Below, piece after piece: positions 5,548 through 63,721 of a stretch of DNA of 64,000 nucleotides; within the stretch, counting starts at the first letter, position 1; each line of letters opens with the position of its first letter. Source of the stretch: Candidatus Rifleibacteriota bacterium (GTDB taxonomy: Bacteria > Muiribacteriota > Ozemobacteria > Ozemobacterales > Ozemobacteraceae); assembly GCA_017417215.1 (NCBI GenBank), contig JAFPZP010000010.1, positions 10,155-74,154 on the forward strand. The letters are read 5' to 3'. A program made the position numbers and the translations under genes. A model generated the notes under the pieces. It was not told the origin of the DNA. It saw only the letters and a program-made list of their open reading frames with translations, and made no database searches.

Positions 5548-5556
5548 GATTTAATT

Positions 5557-7014
5557 ATGGCTAAAAAGATAGAAAAAATAGATTCTAATGATGAAAATAC
5601 TGTTCGTCAGATGATTGCAGATCTTGAGAATATAGAAGAAAATCGATTGAATGATGCTGTCTGCGATATTATAGATATTGGCAGTAAACCAATATTAATG
5701 CTTATAGAAGCTTTACCAGATATGTCTGAAGAAGTTGGCAGCATTGTTGTTCAAAAGTTGGAAGATTTCTTCTATTTCCATCCGGAAAAGGGTGAGAAGG
5801 TTGTTGAAAGATTGAAAAAATCTGTAAGAGAAGCGCCGGAAAGATATAGAGCTGGGTTGTTGTCTGCTTTGTCTGATATTCTTGAAGCAATAGATGAATC
5901 TGGTGAAACTATCAGCACAATGGGTGAAGAAGCTATGTCTGTGCTTTGCTCTAATACTGATATAACTAGAATTGGAAAAGCTATCGAAATTTTGATAAGA
6001 GCTGAAAAGTATGATTCTATACCACATATTATCAAATTAATGACAAAATCTACTGATAAGTTAGATAAATTTGAGTATTATCAATTTATTGAAACTTCTT
6101 TGCTGGCTCTTAAGAGACTAGGTGGGGAAGCGGTTCTTAGATTACTTGTTAATCCTTTATCTGATTCTGCTATTAAACAGCTTAGAATAGAATGGAGAAC
6201 AAAAGAACAAAAACTGCTTGAAGATACATTAATTGCTCTTCAGAAGCTTGATTCTGATTTCGCCCAGGTTATGATTAAGGTAGTTGATTTGTCTGAATTT
6301 AATCTTCCATTTGCTGCTATGCTTAATGAAGGAATAAAGCACAGTGATAAATGGGTAAGACAGGCTGCTGTAGAAGCTATGAGCAAAACTAGTGAAAATA
6401 TGACTCCAGAAGCTCTTTCTAGAATGCTTTCAGATCCAGCTCCAGAAGTAAGACTTATGGCAACTACGTCATTAGGTGCTTTTGATAAAAAACAGACTGG
6501 TGATTTATTATTAGATTTGGCTGGCAGAGAAGAAGAATCGATAGATATAAGACTTAATGCTTTATATGCTTTATATGCTCAAGGAAATTTGGCTGCTTTG
6601 CAGCAATTAGCAGCTAAAAAAGAAAATGAAAAAATAACTGTAAACGCTGAAGGATTGGCGGCCTTGTTGATGCCTCACGAACAAGGTTTACATAAGATGT
6701 TAGATGTTTATATGGCTACAAAAGAAAGTTTGTTGCCAGAAGCAGCACATTATTTGTCTGAATTAACCGTTCCAGAAGACATAGGTGCTATGGTTGCTGC
6801 TCATTCTAAGGGTAATGAAGAACAGCGTGACAAAATGATTAGGTTTTTAAAAGCTTTTGTTGAAAATAATGACGGACCTAAGCTTGAGGCAGCAATGAAA
6901 GCACAGCTTAATGAGGCTGAAAGAAGCGCTTTAAAGAGAATGATTCCTGAAAAGAAGTCTCATGACGAATCGGATGAATGCGATTGCTCTTGTGGTGAGC
7001 ATCATCATCATTGA
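5557..7014 (+). CDS. HEAT/armadillo-like repeat protein with a Cys/His-rich C-terminal tail (CDCSCGEHHHH)
   Basis: Repeated helical HEAT-like units occur (e.g. KWVRQAAVEAMSK, APEVRLMATTSLGAF, IDIRLNALYALY). The protein ends ...ESDECDCSCGEHHHH followed by TGA. Confidence 0.5.
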   Translation: MAKKIEKIDSNDENTVRQMIADLENIEENRLNDAVCDIIDIGSKPILMLIEALPDMSEEVGSIVVQKLEDFFYFHPEKGEKVVERLKKSVREAPERYRAGLLSALSDILEAIDESGETISTMGEEAMSVLCSNTDITRIGKAIEILIRAEKYDSIPHIIKLMTKSTDKLDKFEYYQFIETSLLALKRLGGEAVLRLLVNPLSDSAIKQLRIEWRTKEQKLLEDTLIALQKLDSDFAQVMIKVVDLSEFNLPFAAMLNEGIKHSDKWVRQAAVEAMSKTSENMTPEALSRMLSDPAPEVRLMATTSLGAFDKKQTGDLLLDLAGREEESIDIRLNALYALYAQGNLAALQQLAAKKENEKITVNAEGLAALLMPHEQGLHKMLDVYMATKESLLPEAAHYLSELTVPEDIGAMVAAHSKGNEEQRDKMIRFLKAFVENNDGPKLEAAMKAQLNEAERSALKRMIPEKKSHDESDECDCSCGEHHHH

Positions 7015-16144: not shown

Positions 16145-16588
16145 TTGATTAAGAATGGAGAAAGAGATATGAAAAAGACTTTTATCTTATTTATAATGCT
16201 TTCTGTTTTATTGGTGGCAGCAGGGATTAATGCTGAAACTATTCCAACAAAAGGCTATGTAACTCCAGATATAGGTCTTAACGTAAGATCTGGTCCTAGC
16301 GAAGGTTCTACTAAGATTGGCGCTCTTGAAAAGGGTACTGTTTTAAAAATAACTTCTGTTTCTGGAAAATGGTATAAAATATCTAGTCCTATGTCTGGAT
16401 ATGTTCATGGAGATTATGTTACTGTAACAGACTCTATTGAATCTGAAGATCCAACAGATGAACAGCAACCAGGACAAGAATCAAAAGTAGATGATTCAAC
16501 TCTTCCTCAGGAAGAACAAGAAAAAATTGGCTGCGATATAGATAGAAGCTTGGCTAATGTACAAATAATTAAGACTCCCATTAAATGA
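16145..16588 (+). CDS. Secreted SH3b-domain protein
   Basis: Signal peptide, then GYVTPDIGLNVRSGPSEGSTKIGALEKGTVLKITSVSGKWYKISSPMSGYVHGDYVTV, a bacterial SH3-like pattern. Confidence 0.5.
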   Translation: MIKNGERDMKKTFILFIMLSVLLVAAGINAETIPTKGYVTPDIGLNVRSGPSEGSTKIGALEKGTVLKITSVSGKWYKISSPMSGYVHGDYVTVTDSIESEDPTDEQQPGQESKVDDSTLPQEEQEKIGCDIDRSLANVQIIKTPIK

Positions 16589-18789
16589 TATCTGTTCCTA
16601 GACACTACTCAAAAAAGGGTAGCGTAATAATAGTAGTAATATGTATATTCGTTGCTTTGCTGATATTATTGGCTTCATTTTTTAAGTCAGCTACCAGCAA
16701 AGTCTATACTACTAAAAAATTAGGTGATACAATGCTTGCCAGAGAGTTAGCTAACTCTCTGGCGATTCTGTCTAATCATTATATAAAAAGTATAGAGTTA
16801 AAAAATTCGGGAAGTGAGATAAGAAAGCTTCTTAGTAAATCAATAGACAAGATGGAATCTGGTGAGGGGAAAATAAAAGAAGAGGATTTAAAGAAATATT
16901 TTGGTGAAATTTATTCAACTTTAATAAACAAATCTGGATTAAATAAGATTGCTTTGAAAGAACTTAAATGGATAATCAATAAGAAAGATTTTATTGCATT
17001 AAAAACAGACGGCAAAGATAGTCCTTATCCTAGAGAGAAAAAGGGTTATATTCGCTACTATATGAAGATTTCTTATTTGGTTCCAGGAAATAAGTCTCCA
17101 ATAACAGAAGAATATACATTTTTTTCAGGTATAACTGTAGTTGCTAATATTATACCAGTTTTATCCAAGTTTTCTTTTTATGTTGAAAATGTGTTTAATA
17201 ATAGAAGTATAGACGACAATCTTGTTTTAAGCACTTATTTCAACGTTGTGGATTCAACTGAGGGCGGCATATTAAATGATAATAGTCCTCGCCCCTGGGT
17301 TATAAACAATGGAGGAACACAATCTTATGATAATTATAAAGATTATGTGGCCGATTCCAGAGGTTTCATTTATCTTGGAGGGGGAACTAACGATAAACCC
17401 ATAATACTAGGTATTGCTAGAGGTTTTAGCAGTGCAACTCAAGGTGATTTTGGAGAAGATTTCCATTTTTATAAGAATGGTAGAGCTGGTTATTGGAAAC
17501 TTCGAGAAGTATGGCCTAAAACAGAGTCTAATATATTAGAGTCTGAAATAGGTCTTTGTAATGATGTAACCAGTAATTATAAGAAATGGCAGGAAAAATT
17601 TGGTTCTGCCGGTTACGATAAGATTTCCAGATATAATTCTATTTTCAGGCTTTATGGCACAGATGTAGATAAGTCTCCAACTTTGGTTTATGGATATGTT
17701 AATTCTATGCATGGTTCTGTAAAGGCTTTTAAAAGTGCTACTTCTGGAAGCAACTATCTATATTATATTGAAAAAGACAATGAATTGGATTTTATAAATA
17801 GTGCTGGTTATAATGATAATCCAGATGATTTTGTAAATGTTTATGACCTAAAGGCTTTTGGTGGTAAGTATCTGGATGAGTTTGGAGATCAGGCTACATT
17901 TGAAATATATAATGAAAAATATAGTACTAAAATAACTCAAAGTAGGTATAACAAAGACTTTACTTATTATTTAGCTAAAGAAAAAGGGAAATCTGCTTCT
18001 GACCAGCAGTATCCTTTAAAATATTGTACTGATTTGTTAAAAGGTGACTTGATTAAGCTTTGTGAAGATGCAAGTGATGATAGTTTGTTCTTAGCTGTTC
18101 CAAACGCAGAAGGATCGGCTGAATTTAGAAATATTTATTCTAATTCGACCAACTTAGAAGAATTAGATAAGTTTCTTGATGGTGAAAAGTTAGGTTTTGA
18201 GAATACTTCTGAAACAAGCAGGATAGCATATTATTTTAAGCCTGATAACTCTGAAGATATTGAAAAGTATTTGATAAATAAAGGTTTGTTAAAGAAGAAA
18301 GATTTGTCTCTTGATGGATGGCTATATATTGACTGTGATGAAGGTTTTGAAGTTGTACTTAAAGATTTGAACTTGTTGAGTCATGGCGGTATTATTGTAT
18401 CTAATGGGAATGTTACTTTAAAAGGAAATATCAAGAGTGTGTCTGGTGCCCATTTGAATATAGTTGCTCTTAAGGGGAATATTACTATTGAGAGAAGTGT
18501 AGATACTGTAGATGCTTCTTTAATTGCTGGCGGTGGTCAGGTAAAATTAGATGGTAATGAAAAAGACAAAAAGTTAAATATTAAAGGTAATATTGTTATG
18601 AAGAATATACCTTGTGATAATATAAAGAATAGAGTTGATTATGAGAAAATGAAACGCGGTCTTTTCTTGAATTATAATACCGATCTTTCCGCTATTCCGT
18701 TTTCTAACAAGTATAATGTTGAAGAATCCAAGACAGAATTACCTCTGTTAATGTTCAATATAAATGAAAAGACGAAAATGTTAGATTGA
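16585..18789 (+). CDS. Large membrane-anchored hypothetical protein (734 aa) with a beta-helix-like C-terminal repeat region
   Basis: N-terminal TM SVIIVVICIFVALLILLASFF. The C-terminus has repetitive GN(I/V)xLKGNI segments. The start overlaps the previous gene by 4 nt. Confidence 0.4.
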   Translation: MISVPRHYSKKGSVIIVVICIFVALLILLASFFKSATSKVYTTKKLGDTMLARELANSLAILSNHYIKSIELKNSGSEIRKLLSKSIDKMESGEGKIKEEDLKKYFGEIYSTLINKSGLNKIALKELKWIINKKDFIALKTDGKDSPYPREKKGYIRYYMKISYLVPGNKSPITEEYTFFSGITVVANIIPVLSKFSFYVENVFNNRSIDDNLVLSTYFNVVDSTEGGILNDNSPRPWVINNGGTQSYDNYKDYVADSRGFIYLGGGTNDKPIILGIARGFSSATQGDFGEDFHFYKNGRAGYWKLREVWPKTESNILESEIGLCNDVTSNYKKWQEKFGSAGYDKISRYNSIFRLYGTDVDKSPTLVYGYVNSMHGSVKAFKSATSGSNYLYYIEKDNELDFINSAGYNDNPDDFVNVYDLKAFGGKYLDEFGDQATFEIYNEKYSTKITQSRYNKDFTYYLAKEKGKSASDQQYPLKYCTDLLKGDLIKLCEDASDDSLFLAVPNAEGSAEFRNIYSNSTNLEELDKFLDGEKLGFENTSETSRIAYYFKPDNSEDIEKYLINKGLLKKKDLSLDGWLYIDCDEGFEVVLKDLNLLSHGGIIVSNGNVTLKGNIKSVSGAHLNIVALKGNITIERSVDTVDASLIAGGGQVKLDGNEKDKKLNIKGNIVMKNIPCDNIKNRVDYEKMKRGLFLNYNTDLSAIPFSNKYNVEESKTELPLLMFNINEKTKMLD

Positions 18790-49190: not shown

Positions 49191-52100
49191 ATGAGTGTAA
49201 CTGTTGCAACTGAAACAGCTTCGCAGACAAATTCTTCTGCAGCTCCATCTACAACTGCCGCAGCGGCTCCTGCTGCAAACAATACTGCTAATTCTTTACC
49301 GCAGCAATACCAGACCAAAAAGGCTATGTGGGAACGAAAGCTTCTAGACTTAGGTTTGAGAAACCAGCTTATCAATATGCGCAAGTCTCGCACGCTGATT
49401 CCTCTTATAACTAATACAATTAACGAACTAGAAGACGCCTTGGCTGATGGTGAAGAATTCTTAATAACTGCAAAACCGGAAAAAACAGTATTTTCAGAAG
49501 AAGAATTCAAATTTGATGATTTATTAAAAACAGAAATCAAAGATGAAGATCTACAAAAGGAATTCGCAAAACACCATTTGTTTTCATCATTAACAGAAGG
49601 CGAATTAAAGAAAGCAATAAAAGAAGTCTACCGCTCAGCCAAAAGTTCTATCGAAGAAAACGGCGCCAATACTCTTTATTTGGCTCTTGGTCTTTTAAAA
49701 TGGTTTGAATCTAAGGGGAATAATCCGCCTGCCCGTTATGCACCGATTATTCTTTACCCAATAGATATAATCAGAAAATCAGCAGCTCAAGGCTACACAA
49801 TCAGTCTTAGAGACGATGACCCACAGCTCAACATAACAATGCTAGAAAAGCTGAAACAGGATTTCAGAATTGAAGTTGAAGGTTTGGATCCTCTTCCTCT
49901 AGATGAACACGGGCTAGACACACGTAAAATTTTTGAGACAATACGTGAATATGTTAAACCTCAGGAAAACTGGGAAGTTATAGAAGTTGCTGCAGTAGGT
50001 ATATTCTCCTTTACTCAGTTTGTAATGTGGAACGACCTGACCAACCGTTCTGACGACCTAATTAAGAATAAAATAGTCAAGAGTTTGTTGGAAGGCAAAC
50101 TCACCTGGGAAGCTGAAGGCATGGAAACTGGCGACCACGTCTGCGAAGATGATGTTTTTATGGCTATGCCAACAGACGCTTCTCAGCTTTTTGCTGTCAG
50201 AAGTGCTTGCGAAAACAAGTCTTTCGTTCTTCACGGTCCTCCAGGAACAGGTAAATCTCAGACTATTACTTCTTTGATTGCAAATGCCTTAGGGCAGAAT
50301 AAAACCGTTTTATTTGTAGCAGAAAAGATGGCTGCTCTAGAAGTAGTTCAAAAACGTCTTGCTTCTATTGGCTTAGACCCATTCTGCTTAGAACTTCATT
50401 CAAATAAATCTCGCAAAAAAGCTGTTTTGGAAAAATTACAGCAGACTACAGAATTCCGCAGACCTAAAGCAAGCGATGATTATAAGCAGAAAGCAGAAGA
50501 AATATCCAAACTTCGCAAAGAACTTAATGTTTATTCCGAAGACCTTCATAAGAAGCAAAGCTATGGTTTAAGCATATATGAGCTTATAAATGAATATGAA
50601 CTAAATTCAGACTTTCCCGATATTCCTGCTTTTTCTCAAGAAGCTTTAGGGAATGTTACTAAGGAACTACTCGACAAGCAGAATCAGATTATTGAATCCT
50701 TAATTACTTCTGCTCGTGCTGTTGGTCACCCTGCTGAACATGCTCTTTCAAGAGTAGGTTGTAAAGAATACAACCAGAGTCTTAAAGACGACCTTAATTC
50801 TAAGGCTACAAAATACTTGAATAATCTAGAAAAGCTAAAAGAATTAGCTGACGAATTCAAGAATAAAGCAGAACTAACAAATTTAGATGACGACATTGAA
50901 TGGACAAAACTTTTAACAACTGCTGAACAGGTTGCCAAATGGTCATACTTACCAAAAGCCTGGGCTGACCACAAAGGCATGAATATTTGCATGACTGAAA
51001 TAGCCGAAATGGCTGACCATTTCGCAAAGTCAAAAGAATTGCGCACTGAACTTGAAAAGAACTGGAAGCCAGAATTTTTCGATCAGAATGGTAGCGAACT
51101 TTCAGCTACTCATACTCAGAAGAGTAATTCCTGGTTTATTCCTAGATTCTTCGGGTTATGGAGCTTGAAAAGCAAAGTTTCATCTTTTGCAAAATCTTCT
51201 GTTAATGCAGATACTTTAGGCAAAGATCTTTCAGACCTTTCTTTATACCAGTCTGAAAAAGCTAAGGCTGATGAATTATTTAAAAAATACACTGCTGAAC
51301 TTGATTCTCTTTATGATGGTGAAAACACCGATTGGAACAAGGTTAAAACTTATGCTGTAGATGCAAAAGAAAGCTGCGCCAAACTTAACGAACTTTATAA
51401 TGATGAAGAACTTCGAATAAAGCTTTGTAGCAATAAAGAACTGACTCAAAAAGCTCAGGAAGTTCAAAAGGCAAACGAAACAAGACTTTCTTCCCAGAAA
51501 GAATTTGCTGAAGTTGCTATGCCAAAGCCTGTTAATCAGTTTAATACGCCTGTTCTGGAAGACATAGAAATGTGTAAGAATATCAACAAGCACGTTGAAG
51601 GTATAAAAGAATGGACTCTTTGGAATAAAACCTCAAGCGAAGCAGAAGAAGCCGGTTTGGCTGTCCTTGTCGAAGCCTATCAAAAGGGTATGGATCACGA
51701 CGATATAAAGGGAGCTTATTTAAAATCTATCAGTAAAGGCCTTGCTGCTCGTGCTATAGATGCTTCTAGCACTCTTAATAACTTCTCTGGGAAGGTATTT
51801 GACCAGAAAGTAGACAAATTCATAACTCTTGATAAACAGGTCAGCGCTCTTGGAAACCGTGAAATAGTCTATCGTTTGGCTGCAAAACTTCCTGACTTTA
51901 CTAGAGAGGCTGCTCAAAGCTCTGAACTAGGCATTTTACAAAGAGCTATCAAGAGCGGGGGTAGGGGAACCTCATTAAGAAAGCTTTTTGGGCAGATTCC
52001 TAATATTCTTCCAAGACTCTGTCCCTGTATGCTCATGAGCCCTATATCTGTTGCTCAATATATCGACCCCAATAAATCACCTTTCGATCTGGTAATCTTC

Positions 52101-53963
52101 GACGAAGCTTCACAGCTTACAACCAGCAAAGCAGTTGGTGTTTTGGCTCGTGGTCAGAATGCAGTAATCGTTGGTGACCCCAAGCAGATGCCGCCGACTT
52201 CATTCTTCTCTTCTGCTGCAGTTGATGAAGATAACCTTGATTTGGAAGATATGGAAAGTATTCTCGACGACTGCTTAGCCTTGAATATGCCTCAAACTCA
52301 TTTGTTATGGCACTACAGAAGTAAACACGAAAGCTTGATAGCTTTCAGTAACCATAACTTCTACGAAAGCAAGCTTTTCACTTTCCCATCAGTAGACGAC
52401 AGAGAATCTAAGGTTAATTTCGTTCCCGTAAAAGGCACTTTTGACCACGGTTCTGGCAAGCGCTACAACAAAGAGGAAGCCGAAGCTGTTGTTAAAGAAC
52501 TGATTCGCAGAAGCAAAGACCCCAAACTTTCTAAATACAGTGTTGGTGTTGTCACTTTCAACATTCCTCAGCAGAACCTCATCGACGACCTCTTTACTGA
52601 AGCCTGTAAGACAGACTTAGAACTTGAAAGCTGGGCTTATAAGAAAGAAGATCCGTTATTCATCAAGAATCTTGAAAATGTTCAAGGTGATGAACGCGAT
52701 GTAATCATATTCTCAGTCGGTTACGGACCAGACAAAGAAGGCAAAGTCTCTATGAACTTCGGTCCGTTGAACAAAGACGGCGGTTGGCGCAGACTTAACG
52801 TTGCTGTTTCCCGTTCTAAACGCGAAATGATGGTATTCAGCTCTATGCTGCCGGAACACATAGACACCAACAAGACCAAAGCAGAAGGCGTTATCGCTCT
52901 TAGAAACTTCCTTGATTTTGCTAGGAATCCGAAAGGCTATTCTTTCTCTGCTGAAAAGAATGCTGCTCAAAACGGCATTATAAAGAGTCTTAGCAAAATT
53001 TTGAAAGAACAGGGTTATTCTGTAGATACCAACATTGGTAATTCTGAATTCAAGATTGATTTAGGCGTAATCGACCCGAGAAATGAAAACAGATATCTTC
53101 TCGGTATTTTGCTCGACGGACCTGTTTATGCAGAATGCAAGACCACCAGAGACCGTGAACTTTCACAGGCAAGTGTTCTTAGAGGCTTAGGCTGGAACAT
53201 CATTAGAATGTGGAGTATGGATTGGTGGGAAAACAAGGATATTGAAGTTGACAAGCTGTTAGATAAACTAGACAAGCTTAAAAACGACAAATCCATAGAA
53301 CCAGAAAAGAAAGAAGAACCAAAAGCAGAGCTGAAACCTGTTGAATACGAAGAACCAGGCACTGCTCCTGCCTCTGACTCTGGAATATTTGCCAAACCTT
53401 ATACTGCAACTCAATTACCTCAAACTTCATTGTCATCAGATGATTTTATGGCTAGAAAGAACGCAGCAGAGCTCAAAAAGCGTGCTATGAAAGTAATTGA
53501 AACAGAAGCTCCTATCACAGAAGGTTTGCTTACCAAACGTCTGATTCAAAGCTATGGAATAACAAGAGTTGGAACACGTGTTCAGGCATATTTAGACGAA
53601 TTCTATGCAAATCTTTCTTTAAAAACCACAACTCAGTCTGACGGTCAAAAGATTTACTGGAATCCAAAGCAGAATCCTGATGATTACAGCGATTGCAGAG
53701 CAGGCAAAACAGATGCTGACAAACGTGATTCTAAGGATATTCCAATAATAGAAGCCTCTAATGCTGTTTACAAAATCGTTTCAGATCAGATTGCACTCTC
53801 TTCTGAAGATTTAGCCAAGGAAGCGGCAAAACAGCTTGGCTTCTCACGTCTCGGCACAAATCTTACAACTCTTATGGATGCCGCCGTAGAAATGAACAAA
53901 GCCGCCGGCTACCTGACCGTCGCTGAAAACGGCAACATCACCCTGAACAAAACAGAAAACTAA
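49191..53963 (+). CDS. Large DUF4011 - SF1 (Upf1/DNA2-like, COG1112) helicase - Vsr/PD-(D/E)xK-like endonuclease - DUF3320 protein; a candidate defence helicase
   Basis: The N-terminus WERKLLDLGLRNQLINMRKS is DUF4011-like. Walker A is LHGPPGTGKSQTITSLI. VIVGDPKQMPPTSFF, VTFNIPQQ and VQGDERDVIIFSVGY are SF1 motifs. C-terminal GNSEFKIDLGVIDPRNENRYLLGILLDGPVYAECKTTRDRELSQASVLRGLGWNIIRMWSMDWW is a Vsr-like REase segment, followed by a DUF3320-like tail. Confidence 0.75.
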   Translation: MSVTVATETASQTNSSAAPSTTAAAAPAANNTANSLPQQYQTKKAMWERKLLDLGLRNQLINMRKSRTLIPLITNTINELEDALADGEEFLITAKPEKTVFSEEEFKFDDLLKTEIKDEDLQKEFAKHHLFSSLTEGELKKAIKEVYRSAKSSIEENGANTLYLALGLLKWFESKGNNPPARYAPIILYPIDIIRKSAAQGYTISLRDDDPQLNITMLEKLKQDFRIEVEGLDPLPLDEHGLDTRKIFETIREYVKPQENWEVIEVAAVGIFSFTQFVMWNDLTNRSDDLIKNKIVKSLLEGKLTWEAEGMETGDHVCEDDVFMAMPTDASQLFAVRSACENKSFVLHGPPGTGKSQTITSLIANALGQNKTVLFVAEKMAALEVVQKRLASIGLDPFCLELHSNKSRKKAVLEKLQQTTEFRRPKASDDYKQKAEEISKLRKELNVYSEDLHKKQSYGLSIYELINEYELNSDFPDIPAFSQEALGNVTKELLDKQNQIIESLITSARAVGHPAEHALSRVGCKEYNQSLKDDLNSKATKYLNNLEKLKELADEFKNKAELTNLDDDIEWTKLLTTAEQVAKWSYLPKAWADHKGMNICMTEIAEMADHFAKSKELRTELEKNWKPEFFDQNGSELSATHTQKSNSWFIPRFFGLWSLKSKVSSFAKSSVNADTLGKDLSDLSLYQSEKAKADELFKKYTAELDSLYDGENTDWNKVKTYAVDAKESCAKLNELYNDEELRIKLCSNKELTQKAQEVQKANETRLSSQKEFAEVAMPKPVNQFNTPVLEDIEMCKNINKHVEGIKEWTLWNKTSSEAEEAGLAVLVEAYQKGMDHDDIKGAYLKSISKGLAARAIDASSTLNNFSGKVFDQKVDKFITLDKQVSALGNREIVYRLAAKLPDFTREAAQSSELGILQRAIKSGGRGTSLRKLFGQIPNILPRLCPCMLMSPISVAQYIDPNKSPFDLVIFDEASQLTTSKAVGVLARGQNAVIVGDPKQMPPTSFFSSAAVDEDNLDLEDMESILDDCLALNMPQTHLLWHYRSKHESLIAFSNHNFYESKLFTFPSVDDRESKVNFVPVKGTFDHGSGKRYNKEEAEAVVKELIRRSKDPKLSKYSVGVVTFNIPQQNLIDDLFTEACKTDLELESWAYKKEDPLFIKNLENVQGDERDVIIFSVGYGPDKEGKVSMNFGPLNKDGGWRRLNVAVSRSKREMMVFSSMLPEHIDTNKTKAEGVIALRNFLDFARNPKGYSFSAEKNAAQNGIIKSLSKILKEQGYSVDTNIGNSEFKIDLGVIDPRNENRYLLGILLDGPVYAECKTTRDRELSQASVLRGLGWNIIRMWSMDWWENKDIEVDKLLDKLDKLKNDKSIEPEKKEEPKAELKPVEYEEPGTAPASDSGIFAKPYTATQLPQTSLSSDDFMARKNAAELKKRAMKVIETEAPITEGLLTKRLIQSYGITRVGTRVQAYLDEFYANLSLKTTTQSDGQKIYWNPKQNPDDYSDCRAGKTDADKRDSKDIPIIEASNAVYKIVSDQIALSSEDLAKEAAKQLGFSRLGTNLTTLMDAAVEMNKAAGYLTVAENGNITLNKTEN

Positions 53964-56253: not shown

Positions 56254-56428
56254 TATTATCTCCCGTGAATTTTATATTCTTAATAGTGTACAGTTTACAA
56301 TAAACTTTTCAATATAACAATATTTTTATTGCTACAGATAAACTCTTTGGGTATTTAGCTCAATAATATATTAAAATAAAAAATTTTATATTATATTAAA
56401 AGTATAAAAATATTTAAAGGCAATAATA

Positions 56429-58633
56429 ATGAGAAAACTACGAAAAAAACATACTGTTTTACTATTTATATTATTAATCCTTTCCTGCTTGTTACTGATT
56501 GCAGTCGATGAAGCCTTTGCTCGTGCCGGCGGTGGTGGTGGCGGAGGCGGCGGAGGTGGCGGCGGAGGCGGCGGTCACGGTGGCCGCGGCGGTAAAGGCG
56601 AAACACTAATATTGGATCTTTTTGTTAGCAGTTGTAAAACACGTGGTATTGCAACAACTCTGTTGCTTTTTTCCCCTTTTATATTGTTTCATTTTACAAG
56701 TTGTTTTGCAGCTTCATTTTATTATAAAGAAAAGGCTTTATCCAGAGTTTTGTTCTTTCTAGGAGCCTTCTTTTTTGGTGGCATTTTTTGTTTTTCGTGT
56801 TTTGGAACTATTTTTTTAGTTTTACCTATTGAATGTGTGACATTAAAAACCATTATAGAGTCAAGAATCAAATATGGTCGTTTTATTACTTGTAACGAAG
56901 AACAATCTAAAAAATTCTCCACAGATAATACACCAAAAGAAAAATTAGCTTTAATGAAAATAAAAAAGAATAATCCTTCTTTTTCATTAACAGATTTTAA
57001 AACAAGAATAAAAAAAGCTTTTAAAATTATTCAGGATTCTTGGATGGATCAGGATTTATCAAATGCGGAAATGTTCTTAGCTGATGGAACTTATGAACAG
57101 TTTCAAATACAAATAAACGGAATGATTAAGGACAATACCGTAGATATAATGAAAGAGCTGGAAATCCAAAATGTTTTTGCAATAAAAGCAGAAAACTCTT
57201 TTGATTATGATTCTATATATGTAGCAATTCAAGCAAAAGCCATTAATTATTTAATGAATAAAAGAACAAAAGCTATCATAAAAGGAGATTCTACAGAACC
57301 TGAATTATTTGCAGAAGTTTGGTGCTTCATGCGAAGAAAAGGGGCTAAAGAATTAAACAGCAAAGGCTTAATAGAAGGATACTGTCCTAATTGCGGAACA
57401 CATATAGAAGGAGCAAGATTAATACAGTGCCCTTCTTGCAATGCTTTGCTAAAATCTGGTCAGCATGACTGGATTCTTGCCGGCATTTATCAGTCTTCTG
57501 AATGGAGAGACACTCATAATTCACATATTCCTGGATTGAAAAATTTATATAAATATGACCCTTCATTTAACATACAGAATATAGAAGATAAACTCTCAGC
57601 CATTTTCTGGCGTATGATTGAAGCTGTTAGAAACCAGAGTGCCGATTCTATTCTTAAAATATCATCAGATAAATTTGCCCAGGATTTTATAAAATCATCT
57701 TTCAAACACAAAGAAATATCAAGATATAATAAAGCTGGAACAGATTCTATTGAAATAATAGGTATTTCAGAAGAAGACGGCAAACATGTACTCTTAGGAC
57801 AAGTTATATGGAATAGTTGTATAACACGAAATGGCAAAGAAGAAACTATTCATCAAAAATCTGTCTTTATTCTTAAAAGAGATATTAATACCAAAACAGA
57901 TACAAGAAAATGCTTCTGTAGTTCACATTGTATAAATTGCGGAGCAGCAGAAACTTTTAACAGCAGTAATTACTGCGAATACTGCAATACTGCAGTTAAT
58001 GACGATAAAAAAGATTGGATTCTTACAGATATTTGTAATATATCTGATCTTTTAATAGGAAAATACCTAAATCATGCTAATATTTATGATAAAAAGGAAG
58101 TTGTTGTTAATCAGGAAAAGACTGTAGCCAAAGCTAATCAAATTATTGCAGAGCCTACAGATTACAATGATTCTACTGAAGAAGAATATGAAGACGATTC
58201 TCTGGATATCAATTTCTGGAGCCTATTAGGCAAATACTCAGTAAAAGATCTGCTTAGAATGTGCATAGCTGTAATGCTTGCAGATGGAGTAATAGACAAA
58301 AACGAATTACAAATAATCAGAAAAATCTGTGAAATAGGCTATATCCCCGAAGAAGTTCTTCAAATGAATATAAGAGAAATGCAAAACGCAGATAATCCTA
58401 TTGAACATGTTTTAGAAACATCAGCAATAGGATTAGATAAAGATTTGCTCAAATTATTAATTAAAATAGCCGTCTCAGATGGAGATGTAGCAAAATCTGA
58501 AGTTGATATAATCTTTAAGATGTCAGAAAAGATGCATGTTTCAAGAAATGAAACCATTGATTCCATAAATAATATTTATGAGAAAAGATGGAAAAAGAAA
58601 CTAGATCAGTCTATTTTTTCCCAAAGGTTTTGA
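56429..58633 (+). CDS. Membrane protein: signal/TM, (Gly)n tract, two TM helices, two Tim44-like domains each carrying an inserted CxxC...CxxC zinc ribbon, and a C-terminal TerB-like domain
   Basis: ARAGGGGGGGGGGGGGGGGHGGRGG. Repeat 1: FAEVWCFMRR...CPNCG...CPSCN...HDWILAGI. Repeat 2: VFILKRD...CINCG...CEYCN...KDWILTDI. The C-terminus LLRMCIAVMLADGVIDKNELQIIRKICEIG ... LLIKIAVSDGDVAKSEVDIIFKMSEKM is TerB-like. Confidence 0.5.
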   Translation: MRKLRKKHTVLLFILLILSCLLLIAVDEAFARAGGGGGGGGGGGGGGGGHGGRGGKGETLILDLFVSSCKTRGIATTLLLFSPFILFHFTSCFAASFYYKEKALSRVLFFLGAFFFGGIFCFSCFGTIFLVLPIECVTLKTIIESRIKYGRFITCNEEQSKKFSTDNTPKEKLALMKIKKNNPSFSLTDFKTRIKKAFKIIQDSWMDQDLSNAEMFLADGTYEQFQIQINGMIKDNTVDIMKELEIQNVFAIKAENSFDYDSIYVAIQAKAINYLMNKRTKAIIKGDSTEPELFAEVWCFMRRKGAKELNSKGLIEGYCPNCGTHIEGARLIQCPSCNALLKSGQHDWILAGIYQSSEWRDTHNSHIPGLKNLYKYDPSFNIQNIEDKLSAIFWRMIEAVRNQSADSILKISSDKFAQDFIKSSFKHKEISRYNKAGTDSIEIIGISEEDGKHVLLGQVIWNSCITRNGKEETIHQKSVFILKRDINTKTDTRKCFCSSHCINCGAAETFNSSNYCEYCNTAVNDDKKDWILTDICNISDLLIGKYLNHANIYDKKEVVVNQEKTVAKANQIIAEPTDYNDSTEEEYEDDSLDINFWSLLGKYSVKDLLRMCIAVMLADGVIDKNELQIIRKICEIGYIPEEVLQMNIREMQNADNPIEHVLETSAIGLDKDLLKLLIKIAVSDGDVAKSEVDIIFKMSEKMHVSRNETIDSINNIYEKRWKKKLDQSIFSQRF

Positions 58634-60269
58634 GAATTTCAGTTCTTAGTGTACCAGCACCTGAATTATGAATTAGGAATAAATGCTGGTTCTTGTTAAT
58701 GCAGGCTCTTACCTGGAAAAGATACAGGTGGCCTGCGTAGCTGGTCATAACAACTGCAACATCGCATCTTCCAACTATTTCGTTGGTTCTTGCCTGGCTT
58801 ATGGTGTGGAAACCTTCATACCATTCATAATCAGAATCTTCAACACCGGCTTCTTTTAATGTTGGCCAGTATTGTTCACGGCTACCACCGCCAAAAATAA
58901 CTATTCTTTTGCCCTTCATCAATCCTTCAACAGAATTAGCATTTTCATCGGGAAGAGCATTTAATTGTCTGAGTTTTGCTGTTAATTCCTGATTTTCATT
59001 ATCAAGTTTTCTGAATTCACTGCGCAGCAAAGCATCTTCTTCAAGAGTTTCTTTGAGTTCTTTGTTGGCGGCATTAACTTTAGCTTCTGCAGCAGAAAGC
59101 TGTTTCCTGACTTCTGCTGGGTCGAGTTTTGATAACTTAACTTTTATTTCTTCGTTTTCGATTTTTACTGCTCTGGCTTCGGCTTTAGCTTCATCTCTTT
59201 CTATGATAAGCTTGTTAATTTGTTCTTTAAGCTTATCTGCATCAGAGCGCATTTCACCTATCTTTTCCTGAAGTTCTTCCTTGGTTAATTCAAAATCTTT
59301 TAAGGAAATATTAGGTCTTGTTTGGTTGAAATGCTTTAAAACGAAGTGGTGATGCGTATAAACTTCGAGAATATCTTTTAAATAATCTTCGTAGGCTTCC
59401 TGTTTATCTTCGTTTGGTGGAAATTCTGTTTGAACGTCTTTTATTAAAAGCTTCAAAAGTTTTTTCCCGTCTCTGTAAGCTTTGTCGACATCATCATAAA
59501 AAGTAGGTCTTACAAGATTAAGATTTCTTGTTTTATTGAATATTTCATCAAGATACTTGAAATTATCTGCATCTAAAAGCTTCCAGAATCTGATAACATC
59601 AGCAGGTTTTATTTCGTATCGAAGTTCACTTAAAACCTTGTCTAATGCTTCTTTCCTTTGGTCTTCGCTGTTAGGTATATCTTCGTTTTCATTCTGCTTA
59701 CAGATAGTATCTATCTGTTTTACAAGCTTTTTAAAAGCTGGAAACTCATCGCTATCAAGGAATAAAGTAGCCAAAAAACTTTTTCTTTTTAGGAAATGTC
59801 TAGAGAAAACTCTTTTTTCTCCGCCGATTTCAACATCATATTTTGAACTAATTTTGCCACCGACATTATATTTTTTCTTTTTCTTGGCTGCTTCTTCTAA
59901 GGCTTCAGCTTCACGTGCCTTGCGGATTTTTGCCAGTTTTTCTTCTATCATTTCACTGACAAGACGGGCTTGAACAGGTCCGCTCAGCATAATATCCAAT
60001 AAATCGCCGATAAATAAAGCGAAAGCTCGACCATTTTTGTCGTAAGCTTCGGCAAATTTTTTATGTATATTCCAATAACGGTTTTCTTCTTCTTCTATTT
60101 TGCTTTCTGGTTTTGCTTTTGTTTCTTTCTTTTTCATCAAGTCACCAGCAAGTTGTGTGACCATATTTTTCCCTTTTGATGATGGGGAAAAACCAGCTAG
60201 TTTTTCTAATTCATCTAAGTTTTTCTTTTGACTTCTGGAAAGATTAAGACCGTCTAATGGGTTTAACAT
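58611..60269 (-). CDS. Coiled-coil protein with a C-terminal DUF2325-like Rossmann-like domain
   Basis: A long Glu/Lys heptad region (residues ~330-440) is followed by a C-terminal domain with GKRIVIFGGG and CDVAVVMTSYAGH motifs (quoted in full in the findings). The DUF2325 call is from memory of that family's hvivGG / aDlVivftdyvsH pattern. Confidence 0.4.
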   Translation of the reverse strand: MLNPLDGLNLSRSQKKNLDELEKLAGFSPSSKGKNMVTQLAGDLMKKKETKAKPESKIEEEENRYWNIHKKFAEAYDKNGRAFALFIGDLLDIMLSGPVQARLVSEMIEEKLAKIRKAREAEALEEAAKKKKKYNVGGKISSKYDVEIGGEKRVFSRHFLKRKSFLATLFLDSDEFPAFKKLVKQIDTICKQNENEDIPNSEDQRKEALDKVLSELRYEIKPADVIRFWKLLDADNFKYLDEIFNKTRNLNLVRPTFYDDVDKAYRDGKKLLKLLIKDVQTEFPPNEDKQEAYEDYLKDILEVYTHHHFVLKHFNQTRPNISLKDFELTKEELQEKIGEMRSDADKLKEQINKLIIERDEAKAEARAVKIENEEIKVKLSKLDPAEVRKQLSAAEAKVNAANKELKETLEEDALLRSEFRKLDNENQELTAKLRQLNALPDENANSVEGLMKGKRIVIFGGGSREQYWPTLKEAGVEDSDYEWYEGFHTISQARTNEIVGRCDVAVVMTSYAGHLYLFQVRACINKNQHLFLIHNSGAGTLRTEILKTFGKK

Positions 60270-60305
60270 AAGTGTGACTTCCTGATTATTTTTTAGTTTA
60301 ATAGT

Positions 60306-61748
60306 TTAAGCTATTTGATTGCCGCCGCGCTTGCGAGCAAGTTTTAATGCTTTTTCAGCCATTTTTAATAAATCGCCTGGTTTAGTTGTAGCTCCTGAGC
60401 TACTTGCCAAACCAAAGCTTCCAGTTAGCATAATGGTTTGATTGCTAGCTCTTACCTTAGTCTGACTAAGTGATTGTTTTAATTTATTGGCTGCAACTAA
60501 GGCTCCGGTATATGGTGTTTCTGGAAGAAGCATAGCAAAACTGTCTGCGCCGAATCTGGCAACCAAGTCATGTATTCTTGTTGCAGAGCGGAACATTTTT
60601 CCAACTTCTTTCAAAAGTTTGTTACCAGTGTTTTCGCCGTAGGTTTCGTTAACTGTTGAAAAATGGTCTAGATCCATGATGATTAATGAAATATCTTTTC
60701 TGTAGCGCTGTGCTCTGCAAAATTCTTCTGTAAGTCTTTGCATAAAAAGATTTTCATTGGCTATGCCTGTAATTGGGTCTGTTGTTGCAGAATAATACAT
60801 TTTTGTTCTATTTATGGCTACAGAAGCTTGAGCAGCAAATATCTTCATCATCTGATCTGTTCTTGAAGTCATAATATTGCCAGAATGCTTGGTATCAACA
60901 TAAAGTACACCAATATTGCTGGACATTTCTTTTAATGGAACTATGGCAACAGATAGTATTCCAACGTCTTCTGGGCTTTTAAACTTGGGATTTGGATTCC
61001 TGAAGTTATGGGAAGGCCCTATCAAAGATTCACCTGTGTCGAAACATTTGCTTACCAAAAATGAAGTAGCTTGCATATCTTCGGTAACTTCACTGTTATC
61101 GAAATTAATCATAGAAACTGTTTCTAATCTGCCAAGTTCTTCGTTGAAAAGCATCATTAATGCTCTTTCACCGCCGGTTACATTTATTGCCATTTCCAAA
61201 GTGAAGTCAAGAAGTCTTGGAAAGCTTTCAATTGAATTTAATGCATAACTGACTTCTAAAACTGCTGAAAGCTCTTTGATACGGGTAACCATTTCGCCTT
61301 CTGTAGCAGATAATGCAGGGTAATACTGACGCGGAATCTTTGAACGTATTGTTGCAAAACTTTTACGAACAAAGTTTTCGTTACTATTTAAGAAAAATGG
61401 GAAAAATCTGTCGCTGTCAGGGCTGACAGAAGCTTCGTTACCTTCAAGTTGCAGAGAGACAAAGACATCGTCAGACATTTCTATAAAACAACCAGGATTA
61501 ATTGTAGCAATAAAACCTGGCTGGATTTTTTCGCCATTCACGATTGTACCATATGGGCTTTGTAAATCCTGTAATGTCAGGTAACCGTCTGAATTATAGC
61601 GAAGCTGAATCTGTCGACGAGAAATGCCCATCTTATTTAACTGAATATCGCAGTCGTTACCGCTGCCTATTACAACACCGTCACCATGCAAACTGGGGCT
61701 TCCTTCGTAAAGAATCTGCCCATTTTTATCTGTAATTAAAACTTTCAT
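60306..61748 (-). CDS. FHA domain - GAF domain - degenerate GGDEF domain protein (A-site GADSF, I-site RIHD intact); a likely c-di-GMP-binding, non-catalytic signalling protein
   Basis: The N-terminus VVIGSGNDCDIQLNKMGISRRQIQLRYNSDGYLTLQDLQSPYGTIVNGEKI is FHA. The middle region, with TGGERALMML, is GAF-like. The C-terminal TTDPITGIANENLF...IIMDLDHFSTVNETYG...RIHDLVARFGADSFAMLLP is GGDEF with GGDEF replaced by GADSF. Confidence 0.7.
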   Translation of the reverse strand: MKVLITDKNGQILYEGSPSLHGDGVVIGSGNDCDIQLNKMGISRRQIQLRYNSDGYLTLQDLQSPYGTIVNGEKIQPGFIATINPGCFIEMSDDVFVSLQLEGNEASVSPDSDRFFPFFLNSNENFVRKSFATIRSKIPRQYYPALSATEGEMVTRIKELSAVLEVSYALNSIESFPRLLDFTLEMAINVTGGERALMMLFNEELGRLETVSMINFDNSEVTEDMQATSFLVSKCFDTGESLIGPSHNFRNPNPKFKSPEDVGILSVAIVPLKEMSSNIGVLYVDTKHSGNIMTSRTDQMMKIFAAQASVAINRTKMYYSATTDPITGIANENLFMQRLTEEFCRAQRYRKDISLIIMDLDHFSTVNETYGENTGNKLLKEVGKMFRSATRIHDLVARFGADSFAMLLPETPYTGALVAANKLKQSLSQTKVRASNQTIMLTGSFGLASSSGATTKPGDLLKMAEKALKLARKRGGNQIA

Positions 61749-62125
61749 TTCTTAACCTTATATCCACATTTGCAAACTTTTTTTGCCCCCAATACACGAC
61801 CACATTCAGGACAATATTTGCTTACGTGGCTGGCAATCTTTTTCTCTGCGGCTTTTAGCTTTCGCTTTTCTTCTAGCTTTTTGGCCATTTCAAGGAAAGC
61901 CAGTCCTTCTTCTTCACTAACAGCTTTATTTTTAGCAGCACCACTAATCATTTCTTCATATTTTTCAGAATAATCAGGGTTTTCTTCAAGGTAGGCTTTA
62001 AAAGCTTTTTGTGGGTCTTTGTGCTTTTTGTACAAATGTTCATAAGAATAAATAGGTTCTTCTTCGAGCTTTTCTTCGCATATTGCAATGAATTTTTCTT
62101 CCCAAATATCATAAGGGTCTTGCAT
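61745..62125 (-). CDS. Small acidic protein with a C-terminal CPxCG...CKCG zinc ribbon; first gene of the FHA-GGDEF operon
   Basis: 126 aa with a Glu/Lys-rich body. The C-terminus is YCPECGRVLGAKKVCKCGYKV. Its stop overlaps the downstream gene start by 4 nt. Confidence 0.4.
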   Translation of the reverse strand: MQDPYDIWEEKFIAICEEKLEEEPIYSYEHLYKKHKDPQKAFKAYLEENPDYSEKYEEMISGAAKNKAVSEEEGLAFLEMAKKLEEKRKLKAAEKKIASHVSKYCPECGRVLGAKKVCKCGYKVKK

Positions 62126-62290: not shown

Positions 62291-63721
62291 ATGAAAAAGA
62301 CTTCTATATTGGCTGTAGCAGCTCTGATAGTTGGTTTATGCTCCTCTTCATATGCAGCATCTAATGCTCAGAAAAACGTAAAAAAGAATGCTGAAAAAGA
62401 ATGGACATTGGCAGTATTCCTTAATGCTGACAACAATCTCGACAGATTTGGTGTAGCAGACCAGGAAGAAATGAGCCGTGTAGGTTCTAATGAATATCTT
62501 AATATTGTTTCTTTAATTGACCGTGAAAACGGACCAGCACAAATAAACTACATTGAAAAAGACAATATTAAAAAGCTGAAAGACTTAGGCGAACTCGATA
62601 TGGGTGACTATAAAGAGTTTGTTAAATTTGTAAAATTCGTAAAAGAAAACTATCCTGCAAAACACTATTGTTTTTCTTTCTGGAACCATGGTTCAGGCTG
62701 GAAAGATAAAAACGATGCCGCTTCTGTTTTAAAGGGTATTTCTTACGACGATTCAAGCCACAACCATATTTCAACCAACGATTTAACAGTAGCTTTAGCA
62801 GAAGCCAACAAGATTCTCGGTAAAAAAATCGATATGCTCTGCTTTGACGCCTGCTTGATGCAAATGGTTGAAGTTGCATATGCAGCAAAAGATCATGTTG
62901 ATTATATGGTCGGTTCTGAAGAAACAGAACCAGGCAAAGGCGCTCCTTATGATGATATTCTTAAGACTTTGAAAAAAGGCATGAGCCCAAAAGAATTTGC
63001 AATCAGTTGGGTTAATGCTTTCGGTGATTCTTATAACGGTGGCAGCCAGGGAAAAGCAAAATCAACTCAATCTGCTCTTGAAATGAGCAAGTTGCCTCAA
63101 TTTATTGATGCAATCAATGGTTTTGCAAAAGTAGGCATGTCTAAAGATTATTCAAGATTCTTCAGACAAATGAATGTCTATACTCAGAAATATGCTTATC
63201 CAGACAACATGGATTTACTTCATTTTGTTGAATTAATGACTGAACCAACAGGTCTCAACAGTTTGGAAGAATTAAAGAAGCAGAATGTTGATGAAGCTAT
63301 GAAGACAGCCATAAAGAAGCTTCAAACAGCTGGCAAGCAGTTGATTATTGCTAACAGATTCACAACTCCAGAAGCTCAGGAATCAAAAGGTATTGCTATA
63401 TTCTTCCCAACTTCATATTATTGCCCATGGCTCTATCAAGACCTTGCTTTTGCAAAGGATACTCTTTGGGACGATATGCTTGAAGCTCAAGGCGGATATG
63501 CAGTAATGAACAGAATTTCTGAAGATGTTAAGAAGGGTGAACTTGAATCTTTGGCTAAGTTAGTAAAAGACGCCAAGAAAGACCCCAAAAACAAAGTTTA
63601 CCGCAGAGTTCTTGTTCAGCTTAACTATATTGCTGATAATGAACGCGCTGTTCCTGCTAAGTCTAAGGCAGAATTTGAAAATCTACGTGGTAAATTGAAA
63701 TCAGCCATAGCTACTAAGTAA
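62291..63721 (+). CDS. Secreted clostripain-like cysteine peptidase (MEROPS family C11)
   Basis: Signal peptide. The catalytic His is in FWNHGSGW and the catalytic Cys in CFDACLMQMVEV, with C11-typical spacing. Length is 476 aa. Confidence 0.65.
   Translation: MKKTSILAVAALIVGLCSSSYAASNAQKNVKKNAEKEWTLAVFLNADNNLDRFGVADQEEMSRVGSNEYLNIVSLIDRENGPAQINYIEKDNIKKLKDLGELDMGDYKEFVKFVKFVKENYPAKHYCFSFWNHGSGWKDKNDAASVLKGISYDDSSHNHISTNDLTVALAEANKILGKKIDMLCFDACLMQMVEVAYAAKDHVDYMVGSEETEPGKGAPYDDILKTLKKGMSPKEFAISWVNAFGDSYNGGSQGKAKSTQSALEMSKLPQFIDAINGFAKVGMSKDYSRFFRQMNVYTQKYAYPDNMDLLHFVELMTEPTGLNSLEELKKQNVDEAMKTAIKKLQTAGKQLIIANRFTTPEAQESKGIAIFFPTSYYCPWLYQDLAFAKDTLWDDMLEAQGGYAVMNRISEDVKKGELESLAKLVKDAKKDPKNKVYRRVLVQLNYIADNERAVPAKSKAEFENLRGKLKSAIATK

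Follow-up and report, generated by a model that had tools for sequence, protein, structure and literature searches.

A membrane protein with tandem Tim44-like modules, zinc ribbons and a TerB domain in Candidatus Rifleibacteriota, and its large uncharacterised family

A stretch of 64,000 nucleotides of DNA from a Candidatus Rifleibacteriota bacterium (the window) carries a complete open reading frame (ORF) of 734 amino acids (56429-58633, + strand) that encodes a membrane protein with two Tim44-like modules, two zinc ribbons and a TerB domain. The initial annotation, which placed the gene at exactly these coordinates, had linked it to tellurite-resistance (Ter) and phage-defence systems through its TerB domain. 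We found the gene to be an unexceptional chromosomal member of an uncharacterised and very large family of inner-membrane proteins. The family is best classed as a variant of the bacterial Tim44-like membrane proteins, with the window protein as a typical member. The only neighbour of the family that recurs across phyla is a gene for a soluble SPFH (stomatin/flotillin-type) protein of the Band_7_1 type, and this recurrent pairing with SPFH proteins that have no anchor of their own provides a concrete candidate partner for a family that is large, spread over many rarely cultured phyla and without an assigned function. The family also joins a domain of mitochondria-type membrane tethering (Tim44/mL45) to one from bacterial stress systems (TerB).

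Domain architecture and fold of the window protein

Both domains named in the initial annotation were recovered above the Pfam cut-offs, Tim44 (PF04280) at amino acids (aa) 174-306 (75.2 bits against a cut-off of 29.6, E 7.4e-21) and TerB (PF05099) in two stretches (41.7 bits against 24.4, 1.7e-10). The Pfam Tim44 match covers only module 1 (aa 155-358; 56891-57502, + strand), which contains an inserted zinc ribbon, ends in a closing HDWIL strand and is also supported by Foldseek and by conservation. Module 2 (aa 362-540; 57512-58048, + strand) has an inserted ribbon and a closing KDWIL strand as well, and was recognised by hhalign and by the order of its secondary structure elements. Comparison of the family sub-alignments of module 1 (aa 165-358) and module 2 (aa 362-540) showed the two to be homologous from end to end (hhalign probability 99.9% over 172 columns, E 2e-32), and in a distant member (P0081) it is the second module that is matched by Pfam Tim44 instead. 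The tandem duplication is therefore real.

Each of the modules contains a predicted Cys4 zinc ribbon inserted just ahead of its last beta-strand. Ribbon 1 (aa 316-340; 57374-57448, + strand; C319, C322, C334 and C337) reads CPNC319...CPSC334 and is followed by HDWIL346-350, and ribbon 2 (aa 498-522; 57920-57994, + strand; C501, C504, C516 and C519) reads CINC501...CEYC516 and is followed by KDWIL528-532. Both ribbons have the form CxxC-x11-CxxC, in agreement with the inserted CxxC ribbons and closing (H/K)DWIL that had been read from the sequence for each repeat. A further strand motif proposed for both repeats (F-x-E-x-W-x-F-x-R) is exact in module 1 (F294...R302) but only partial in module 2 (V-F-I-L-K-R). 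In an alignment of 76 homologues, the eight ribbon cysteines, the tryptophans of both DWIL strands (including W348) and E296 are invariant. With eight cysteines and two tryptophans invariant in 76 homologues, the ribbon and DWIL pattern is far beyond chance, and the ribbon spacing was found to be constant in 85 homologues. The Pfam DZR zinc-ribbon model was matched below threshold (15.5 against 27.3).

The N-terminus of the translated protein has a basic stretch followed by a hydrophobic segment (aa 9-26) ending in AFARA. This N-terminal region (aa 1-33; 56429-56527, + strand), recognised from sequence and conservation as a signal peptide or first hydrophobic helix, ends in a near-invariant A-R-A and contains two overlapping AxA sites (A29-F-A31 and A31-R-A33), so that either R-A-G(n) or the oligoglycine itself may form the N-terminus of the mature protein. 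In the alignment, A31, R32, A33 and G34-36 are kept in at least 90% of the 76 homologues. The A-R-A-G-G-G motif right behind the signal-peptide core (56519-56545, aa 31-39) reaches a conservation of 90% or more across phyla. It is followed by a Gly-rich tract (aa 34-57; 56528-56599, + strand) with sixteen glycines in a row (aa 34-49), which is predicted to be disordered (pLDDT, the predicted local distance difference test, below 50 over aa 27-58 of the AlphaFold model) and is probably periplasmic. Gly/Ser/Tyr-rich tracts were observed throughout the family. We considered whether the poly-Gly tract is a slippage-prone simple repeat and rejected this because the run uses mixed GGN codons.

Behind the tract lie an amphipathic helix and three hydrophobic helices (aa 59-149; 56603-56875, + strand). 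Two hydrophobic helices had originally been assigned here; hydropathy and the helices of the AlphaFold model give three instead, at about aa 74-98, 103-123 and 126-149. Apart from this helix count, the overall architecture described from the sequence (signal or transmembrane segment, Gly tract, tandem repeats and C-terminal TerB domain) was borne out. Three helices behind the Gly tract are found in the clade of the window protein, and one to three in the family as a whole. In the minimal members, a signal peptide and a Gly/Ser-rich tract precede a single transmembrane helix, ahead of which there is often an amphipathic helix. Judged from the sequences, both the one-helix and the three-helix arrangements would place the Gly tract outside, in the periplasm, and the Tim44-like, zinc-ribbon and TerB parts on the cytoplasmic side. 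The eight invariant ribbon cysteines (putative zinc ligands) and the TerB domain would fit a cytoplasmic location.

Module 2 is connected to the C-terminal domain by an acidic linker (aa 557-592; 58097-58204, + strand; net charge -9) that is poorly conserved and predicted to be disordered (pLDDT below 50 over aa 563-589). The TerB-like helical domain itself (aa 593-734; 58205-58630, + strand) contains two ADG...E acidic motifs and is supported by Pfam, by the family profile and by Foldseek. The family sequence profile matches the TerB-like structures 2h5n (2.8e-7) and 2ou3 (7e-4) as well as the Tim44 entries 2fxt and 3qk9. The DjlA equivalog NF006948 gave a weak match confined to the TerB-like part (19.5 bits against 162, 6e-4). 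No DnaJ or J-domain was found among the Pfam matches of the protein, in which it differs from DjlA.

The AlphaFold model, built on an alignment of 76 sequences, has a mean pLDDT of 84.1 and a predicted template modelling score (pTM) of 0.78, and disorder is limited to the Gly tract and the linker. Both modules consist of helices, a curved sheet, a knuckle-like insertion and a final strand, in the same order. Foldseek comparison with the PDB matched mL45 (9hch_d, 1.5e-4), the C-domains of human and yeast Tim44 (2cw9, 7.7e-4; 3qk9; 2fxt), all with a probability of 1.00, and also the TerB-like structures 2ou3 and 2h5n, so that the fold agrees with the Tim44 and TerB domains that had been proposed from the sequence.

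Three groups of known proteins resemble parts of the window protein. It shares with the Tim44 C-domain and with mL45/Mba1 (2cw9, 3qk9, 2fxt; 9hch, 6zm6) an NTF2-like alpha+beta fold with leading helices and, if its predicted location is correct, a position on the inner side, whether matrix or cytoplasm, of an energy-transducing membrane. However, its modules occur in tandem, each with a Cys4 ribbon before the last strand, and it is an integral protein with a predicted extracytoplasmic Gly-rich tail, without an Hsp70-binding N-domain or a ribosomal context. The bacterial Tim44-like proteins (COG4395; alphaproteobacterial TimA) have a signal or anchor sequence, a Gly-rich segment, a transmembrane helix and a domain ending in W-[IV]-L, and partial NCBIfam matches were obtained. 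TimA differs in having a single module and neither a zinc ribbon nor a TerB domain, and the window protein scores below the cut-offs of the NCBIfam TimA and Tim44_TimA adaptor models (NF033778 and NF033779; 22.7 against 200 and 51.5 against 80). The third group comprises TerB proteins (Klebsiella TerB, PG_1108 2h5n and Npun_F6341 2ou3) and the TerB-like domains of DjlA and YebE, with which the C-terminal domain shares a helical bundle and the duplicated ADG...E motif. Here, by contrast, the domain is an appendage of a membrane protein that is not encoded with terZACDE-type genes.

Size of the family and its genomic neighbours

A word-indexed search gave 86 close relatives, nearly all of which have both ribbons and both DW[IVL]L strands, with constant spacing. 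An exhaustive HMMER search over 1.84 billion cluster representatives gave 11,619 matches at E<=1e-3; of the 1,893 that reach E<=1e-30, the best 150 are all full length (about 620-730 aa). More than 558 loci were found in a scan of one genome per species, representing at least eight phylum-level lineages; the carriers include Riflebacteria/Ozemobacteraceae, Planctomycetota, Lentisphaerota/Victivallales, Verrucomicrobiota, Kiritimatiellae, Fermentibacteria, Elusimicrobia and Desulfobacterota-type lineages. Double-module forms with a TerB domain occur in bacteria of the Planctomycetes-Verrucomicrobia-Chlamydiae (PVC) group, Riflebacteria, Elusimicrobia and others, and single-module forms in Firmicutes and Bacteroidota. 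Shorter members of about 470 aa stop after module 2. Members that are not flagged by Pfam TerB still show a TerB-like tail by eye, and in the long and short members only Tim44, zinc-ribbon and TerB domains were seen, with no additional domain fusions.

Riflebacteria genomes carry two or three diverged paralogues each, with 28-57% identity to the window protein (sets L009/L012, L010/L013/L014, L024/L039, L029/L059, L023/L032 and L025/L031, where L numbers denote genome loci), and the sampled PVC genomes mostly carry one. In a neighbour-joining tree the window copy falls in a Riflebacteria-only paralogue clade together with L009, L010 and L011-L013. A second ORF of 734 aa in the window (16585-18789, + strand), tried as a possible paralogue, is unrelated to it (BLASTP E 0.19). 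Relatives in the databases are named 'TIM44-like domain-containing protein' or 'tellurite resistance protein B-like', and several carry the Joint Genome Institute (JGI) name 'predicted lipid-binding transport protein' (COG4395). A literature search found no paper on a bacterial Tim44 and TerB or Tim44 and SPFH family.

To survey the neighbours, ORFs were called in 80 genome loci and up to four neighbours per side were clustered; 77 of the loci were usable, and a flank of 1.2 kb or more on each side is present in only 57 of the 80. Clustering gave no neighbour family in more than seven of the 77 loci and none extending beyond close relatives. The commonest immediate neighbour is a Band_7_1 (PF13421) SPFH gene (best E 8.5e-93), found by tblastn to be immediately adjacent in twelve of the 80 loci, seven of them with both genes on the same strand and gaps of -63 to 241 bp. 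These twelve loci belong to Lentisphaerota, Victivallales, Kiritimatiellae, Verrucomicrobiales, Phycisphaerales, Thermodesulfobacteriota, Elusimicrobia and Riflebacteria/Ozemobacteraceae, and in a neighbour-joining tree of the family their members fall into many different deep branches. Among them is a Riflebacteria/Ozemobacteraceae clade (L055, L059 and L077) separate from that of the window protein.

The same gene was observed beside other forms of the family. Upstream of P0084, a member with two modules but no TerB, lies a Band_7_1 and SHOCT gene that overlaps it. No SPFH gene was seen in the contexts of the members P0082 and P0076. Three of the four single-module relatives that were checked adjoin a Band_7_1 gene. 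In Monoglobus pectinilyticus, the single-module protein consists of a signal peptide, a Gly/Tyr-rich tract, a transmembrane helix and a Tim44-like module with CPNC...CPYC...NWVL, and an SPFH protein with C-terminal zinc ribbons begins 16 bp after its gene. In a human-gut Firmicute and in a metagenome-assembled genome of Bacteroidales, Band_7_1 and zinc-ribbon genes lie directly behind the single-module gene. The fourth relative (L095) is followed by a double-PLDc_2, cardiolipin-synthase-like gene (5411-6859). By eye, the neighbouring SPFH proteins have no N-terminal anchor; they contain low-complexity regions and C-terminal GYF, SHOCT or zinc-ribbon tails.

Two further neighbours are restricted to particular lineages. 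A DUF4404 coiled-coil gene (110 aa) is found directly upstream on the same strand in Victivallales/Lentisphaerota (L051, L064, L066, L073, L076 and L088), and small PLDc_2 genes are found downstream on the same strand in a Fermentibacteria/Sabulitectum clade (L052, L065, L069, L072 and L083). The PLDc_2 neighbours may hint at a lipid theme.

A possible SPFH-linked role and alternative functions

The explanation that we favour, with a probability of roughly 0.45, is that the family acts as a scaffold or sensor on the cytoplasmic face of the membrane and works with SPFH proteins of the YdjI/SamI type, and that the window protein is a Riflebacteria-specific paralogue without an adjoining SPFH gene that belongs to no Ter operon or phage-defence system. 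The most likely partner would be the soluble and anchorless Band_7_1 SPFH protein; YdjI is presumably a member of the same Pfam family (PF13421). By analogy with mitochondria, where the Tim44 C-domain and mL45 do the same, the Tim44-like modules would keep the protein at the inner leaflet. The zinc ribbons would provide protein-protein contacts, regulation might come from a TerB domain that responds to a metal or ligand, and sensing of the envelope may fall to the external Gly-rich tail. As a whole, the family would then be the membrane-bound receptor or sensor of an SPFH-based system for membrane organisation or envelope stress. For the window protein itself, the SPFH partner might be encoded elsewhere in the genome, or its role might have diverged.

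The closest known counterpart of such an arrangement is the PspA-SamG/SamH/SamI (YdjGHI) system of Bacillus subtilis, as the same kind of SPFH gene adjoins many members of the family. In that system the soluble SPFH protein YdjI/SamI, which carries a zinc finger at its C-terminus, depends on the membrane proteins YdjG/H for its recruitment to the membrane and in turn recruits PspA (PMC8581546; bioRxiv 10.64898/2026.02.06.704340). If the pairing of the family with SPFH proteins is functional, it would explain how such SPFH proteins reach the membrane outside Bacillus and would provide a first role for bacterial Tim44-like proteins. A more far-reaching form of the same explanation is that Tim44-like proteins with inserted ribbons are the missing membrane receptors or sensors for YdjI/SamI-type SPFH proteins across phyla. 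The two genes would then form a widespread envelope-stress or membrane-organisation module in which oligoglycine is the outside sensor and the TerB domain a cytoplasmic metal or ligand input, with the window protein again a diverged paralogue. We found no description of such a two-gene Tim44-like/SPFH module in the searchable literature, and we regard this extended form as tentative and rather doubtful.

Several observations weigh against an SPFH-linked role. An SPFH neighbour is missing at about 80-85% of the double-module loci. No member of the Riflebacteria paralogue clade of the window protein has an SPFH neighbour, and no SPFH homologue occurs anywhere in the 64-kb window. The SPFH link of the window protein is thus an extrapolation from its homologues. 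The likeness to the Bacillus system also has its limits, since the membrane protein of the family is a Tim44-like, zinc-ribbon protein and SamG/H (YdjG/H) have not been reported to be so. No PspA gene was found near the family among the commonest Pfam families of the surveyed neighbours. The proposed topology was derived solely from hydropathy and the positive-inside rule.

An alternative that we consider rather unlikely is that the protein is chiefly a lipid-binding or lipid-sensing protein that acts independently of SPFH proteins, with its NTF2 pockets binding anionic lipids such as cardiolipin. The Tim44 C-domain binds cardiolipin-containing membranes, and the COG4395 name carried by several homologues, the PLDc_2 genes at the five Fermentibacteria/Sabulitectum loci and the cardiolipin-synthase-like gene behind one single-module relative all point in this direction. 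The association with PLD genes is, however, limited to one clade, and genes of the Mla, Lpt and Lol lipid-transport systems do not recur beside the family. Lipid binding is also compatible with a scaffold or sensor that works with SPFH proteins and does not exclude it.

It is improbable that the protein is instead a bacterial analogue of Tim44/Mba1/mL45, that is, an anchor that tethers the ribosome, Hsp70 or the translocon, with the ribbons binding RNA or protein. The mitoribosomal protein mL45 and Tim44 are its best structural matches, zinc ribbons are common in ribosome-binding proteins, and a TerB-like domain is present in the membrane co-chaperone DjlA, the model of which was weakly matched as noted above. 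Against this, the structural matches reflect the shared NTF2-like fold alone, at 11-17% identity. The window protein lacks both a J-domain and the N-terminal Hsp70-binding region of Tim44, its scores against the TimA and Tim44_TimA_adap models are below the cut-offs, and ribosomal, Sec, YidC and DnaK genes do not recur in the neighbourhoods.

The locus, the convergent overlap and the adjoining defence-like genes

The window is ordinary chromosome with radical-SAM, racemase, CheR, CheB, sugar transferase, Dxs and ion-channel genes. The order of genes around the one under study is a 1,590-aa helicase-nuclease, glgB (- strand), the gene itself (+ strand), a convergent operon and a C11 peptidase (62291-63721). 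Between glgB and the gene lies an AT-rich divergent intergenic region (56254-56428). In a promoter and terminator scan, promoter-like matches were no commoner than in shuffled sequence, and no intrinsic terminator was found between the gene and its convergent neighbour. An Rfam scan of the whole window (1-64000) gave no family at gathering score. The convergent operon (58611-62125, - strand) encodes a small zinc-ribbon protein of 126 aa ending in CxxC...CxC, an FHA-GAF-GGDEF diguanylate cyclase of 480 aa and, as its last gene, a coiled-coil protein of 552 aa (58611-60269, - strand). The assignment of this last protein to DUF2325 holds only as a weak C-terminal match, which at 27.6 bits is below the threshold of 33.6.

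The 3' ends of the gene and of this convergent neighbour overlap by 23 bp (58611-58633), as had been noted from the sequence together with the suggestion that the two transcription units interfere or are co-regulated. The overlap is real and recurs in L001, L002 and L003 with conserved DNA, and a relative with 66% protein identity shows synteny over the entire stretch from glgB through to the C11 peptidase, with an overlap of identical size. One might therefore take the overlap as the key feature of the locus, with transcriptional interference coupling the protein to cyclic di-GMP signalling through the FHA-GAF-GGDEF/DUF2325 operon, and the lack of an intrinsic terminator between the genes would favour this. 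Short convergent overlaps are, however, common in compact genomes, and the operon and the C11 peptidase are kept together with the gene in its nearest relative or relatives only. Because synteny is lost at 57% identity (L010), as at all other loci, there is no family-level evidence for co-regulation with the operon. The operon is context only and outside the conserved unit of the family, and we hold it to be quite unlikely that the overlap explains the function of the gene.

The remaining possibility is the one that the TerB domain had originally suggested, namely that the protein belongs to a Ter-type stress or defence system (tellurite-resistance or phage-associated), with TerB sensing a Ter signal and the gene lying in a defence island. 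The TerB match is genuine, a helicase-nuclease resembling the defence candidates PDC-S37 and Hhe is encoded two genes upstream, and ThsB-TIR, RhuM and DUF559 genes are found in that region of a syntenic relative. No Ter cluster was found nearby, however, as TerD/TerC/TelA/TerF-type genes are absent from the Pfam matches of the window and from the loci of relatives inspected individually, and TerD, TerC and TelA are not among the 25 commonest Pfam families of the 139 immediate neighbours (+-1) and 150 next neighbours (+-2/3) in the 77 loci. A PADLOC scan of the protein matched no families. No relative was found in 50,697 phage genomes (tblastn) or in 2.9 million viral contigs, nor was there a fold relative in the BFVD viral structure library. 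A tblastn search of plasmids gave one distant match, to the single-module gene of Monoglobus pectinilyticus on a plasmid record. As there are neither Ter neighbours nor a PADLOC match nor phage or viral relatives, and as the neighbourhoods of the family are heterogeneous and chromosomal, with the local defence genes confined to a variable slot beyond glgB, a Ter or defence role is unsupported, already largely refuted and in our view very improbable.

The variable slot itself can be described further. The 1,590-aa protein (49191-53963, + strand) contains DUF4011, AAA_11/AAA_12 helicase, MTES_1575 restriction-endonuclease-like and DUF3320 domains and matches the PADLOC candidate PDC-S37 from end to end (1198 bits), as well as Hhe. 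The syntenic relative L001 has RhuM, ThsB-TIR, trypsin-TPR and DUF559 genes upstream of glgB instead. Because this region differs between the window and the relative, the defence-like genes are placed in a variable slot beyond glgB and the gene for the Tim44-like protein on the stable backbone, and the gene content suggests a variable defence hotspot adjoining glgB.

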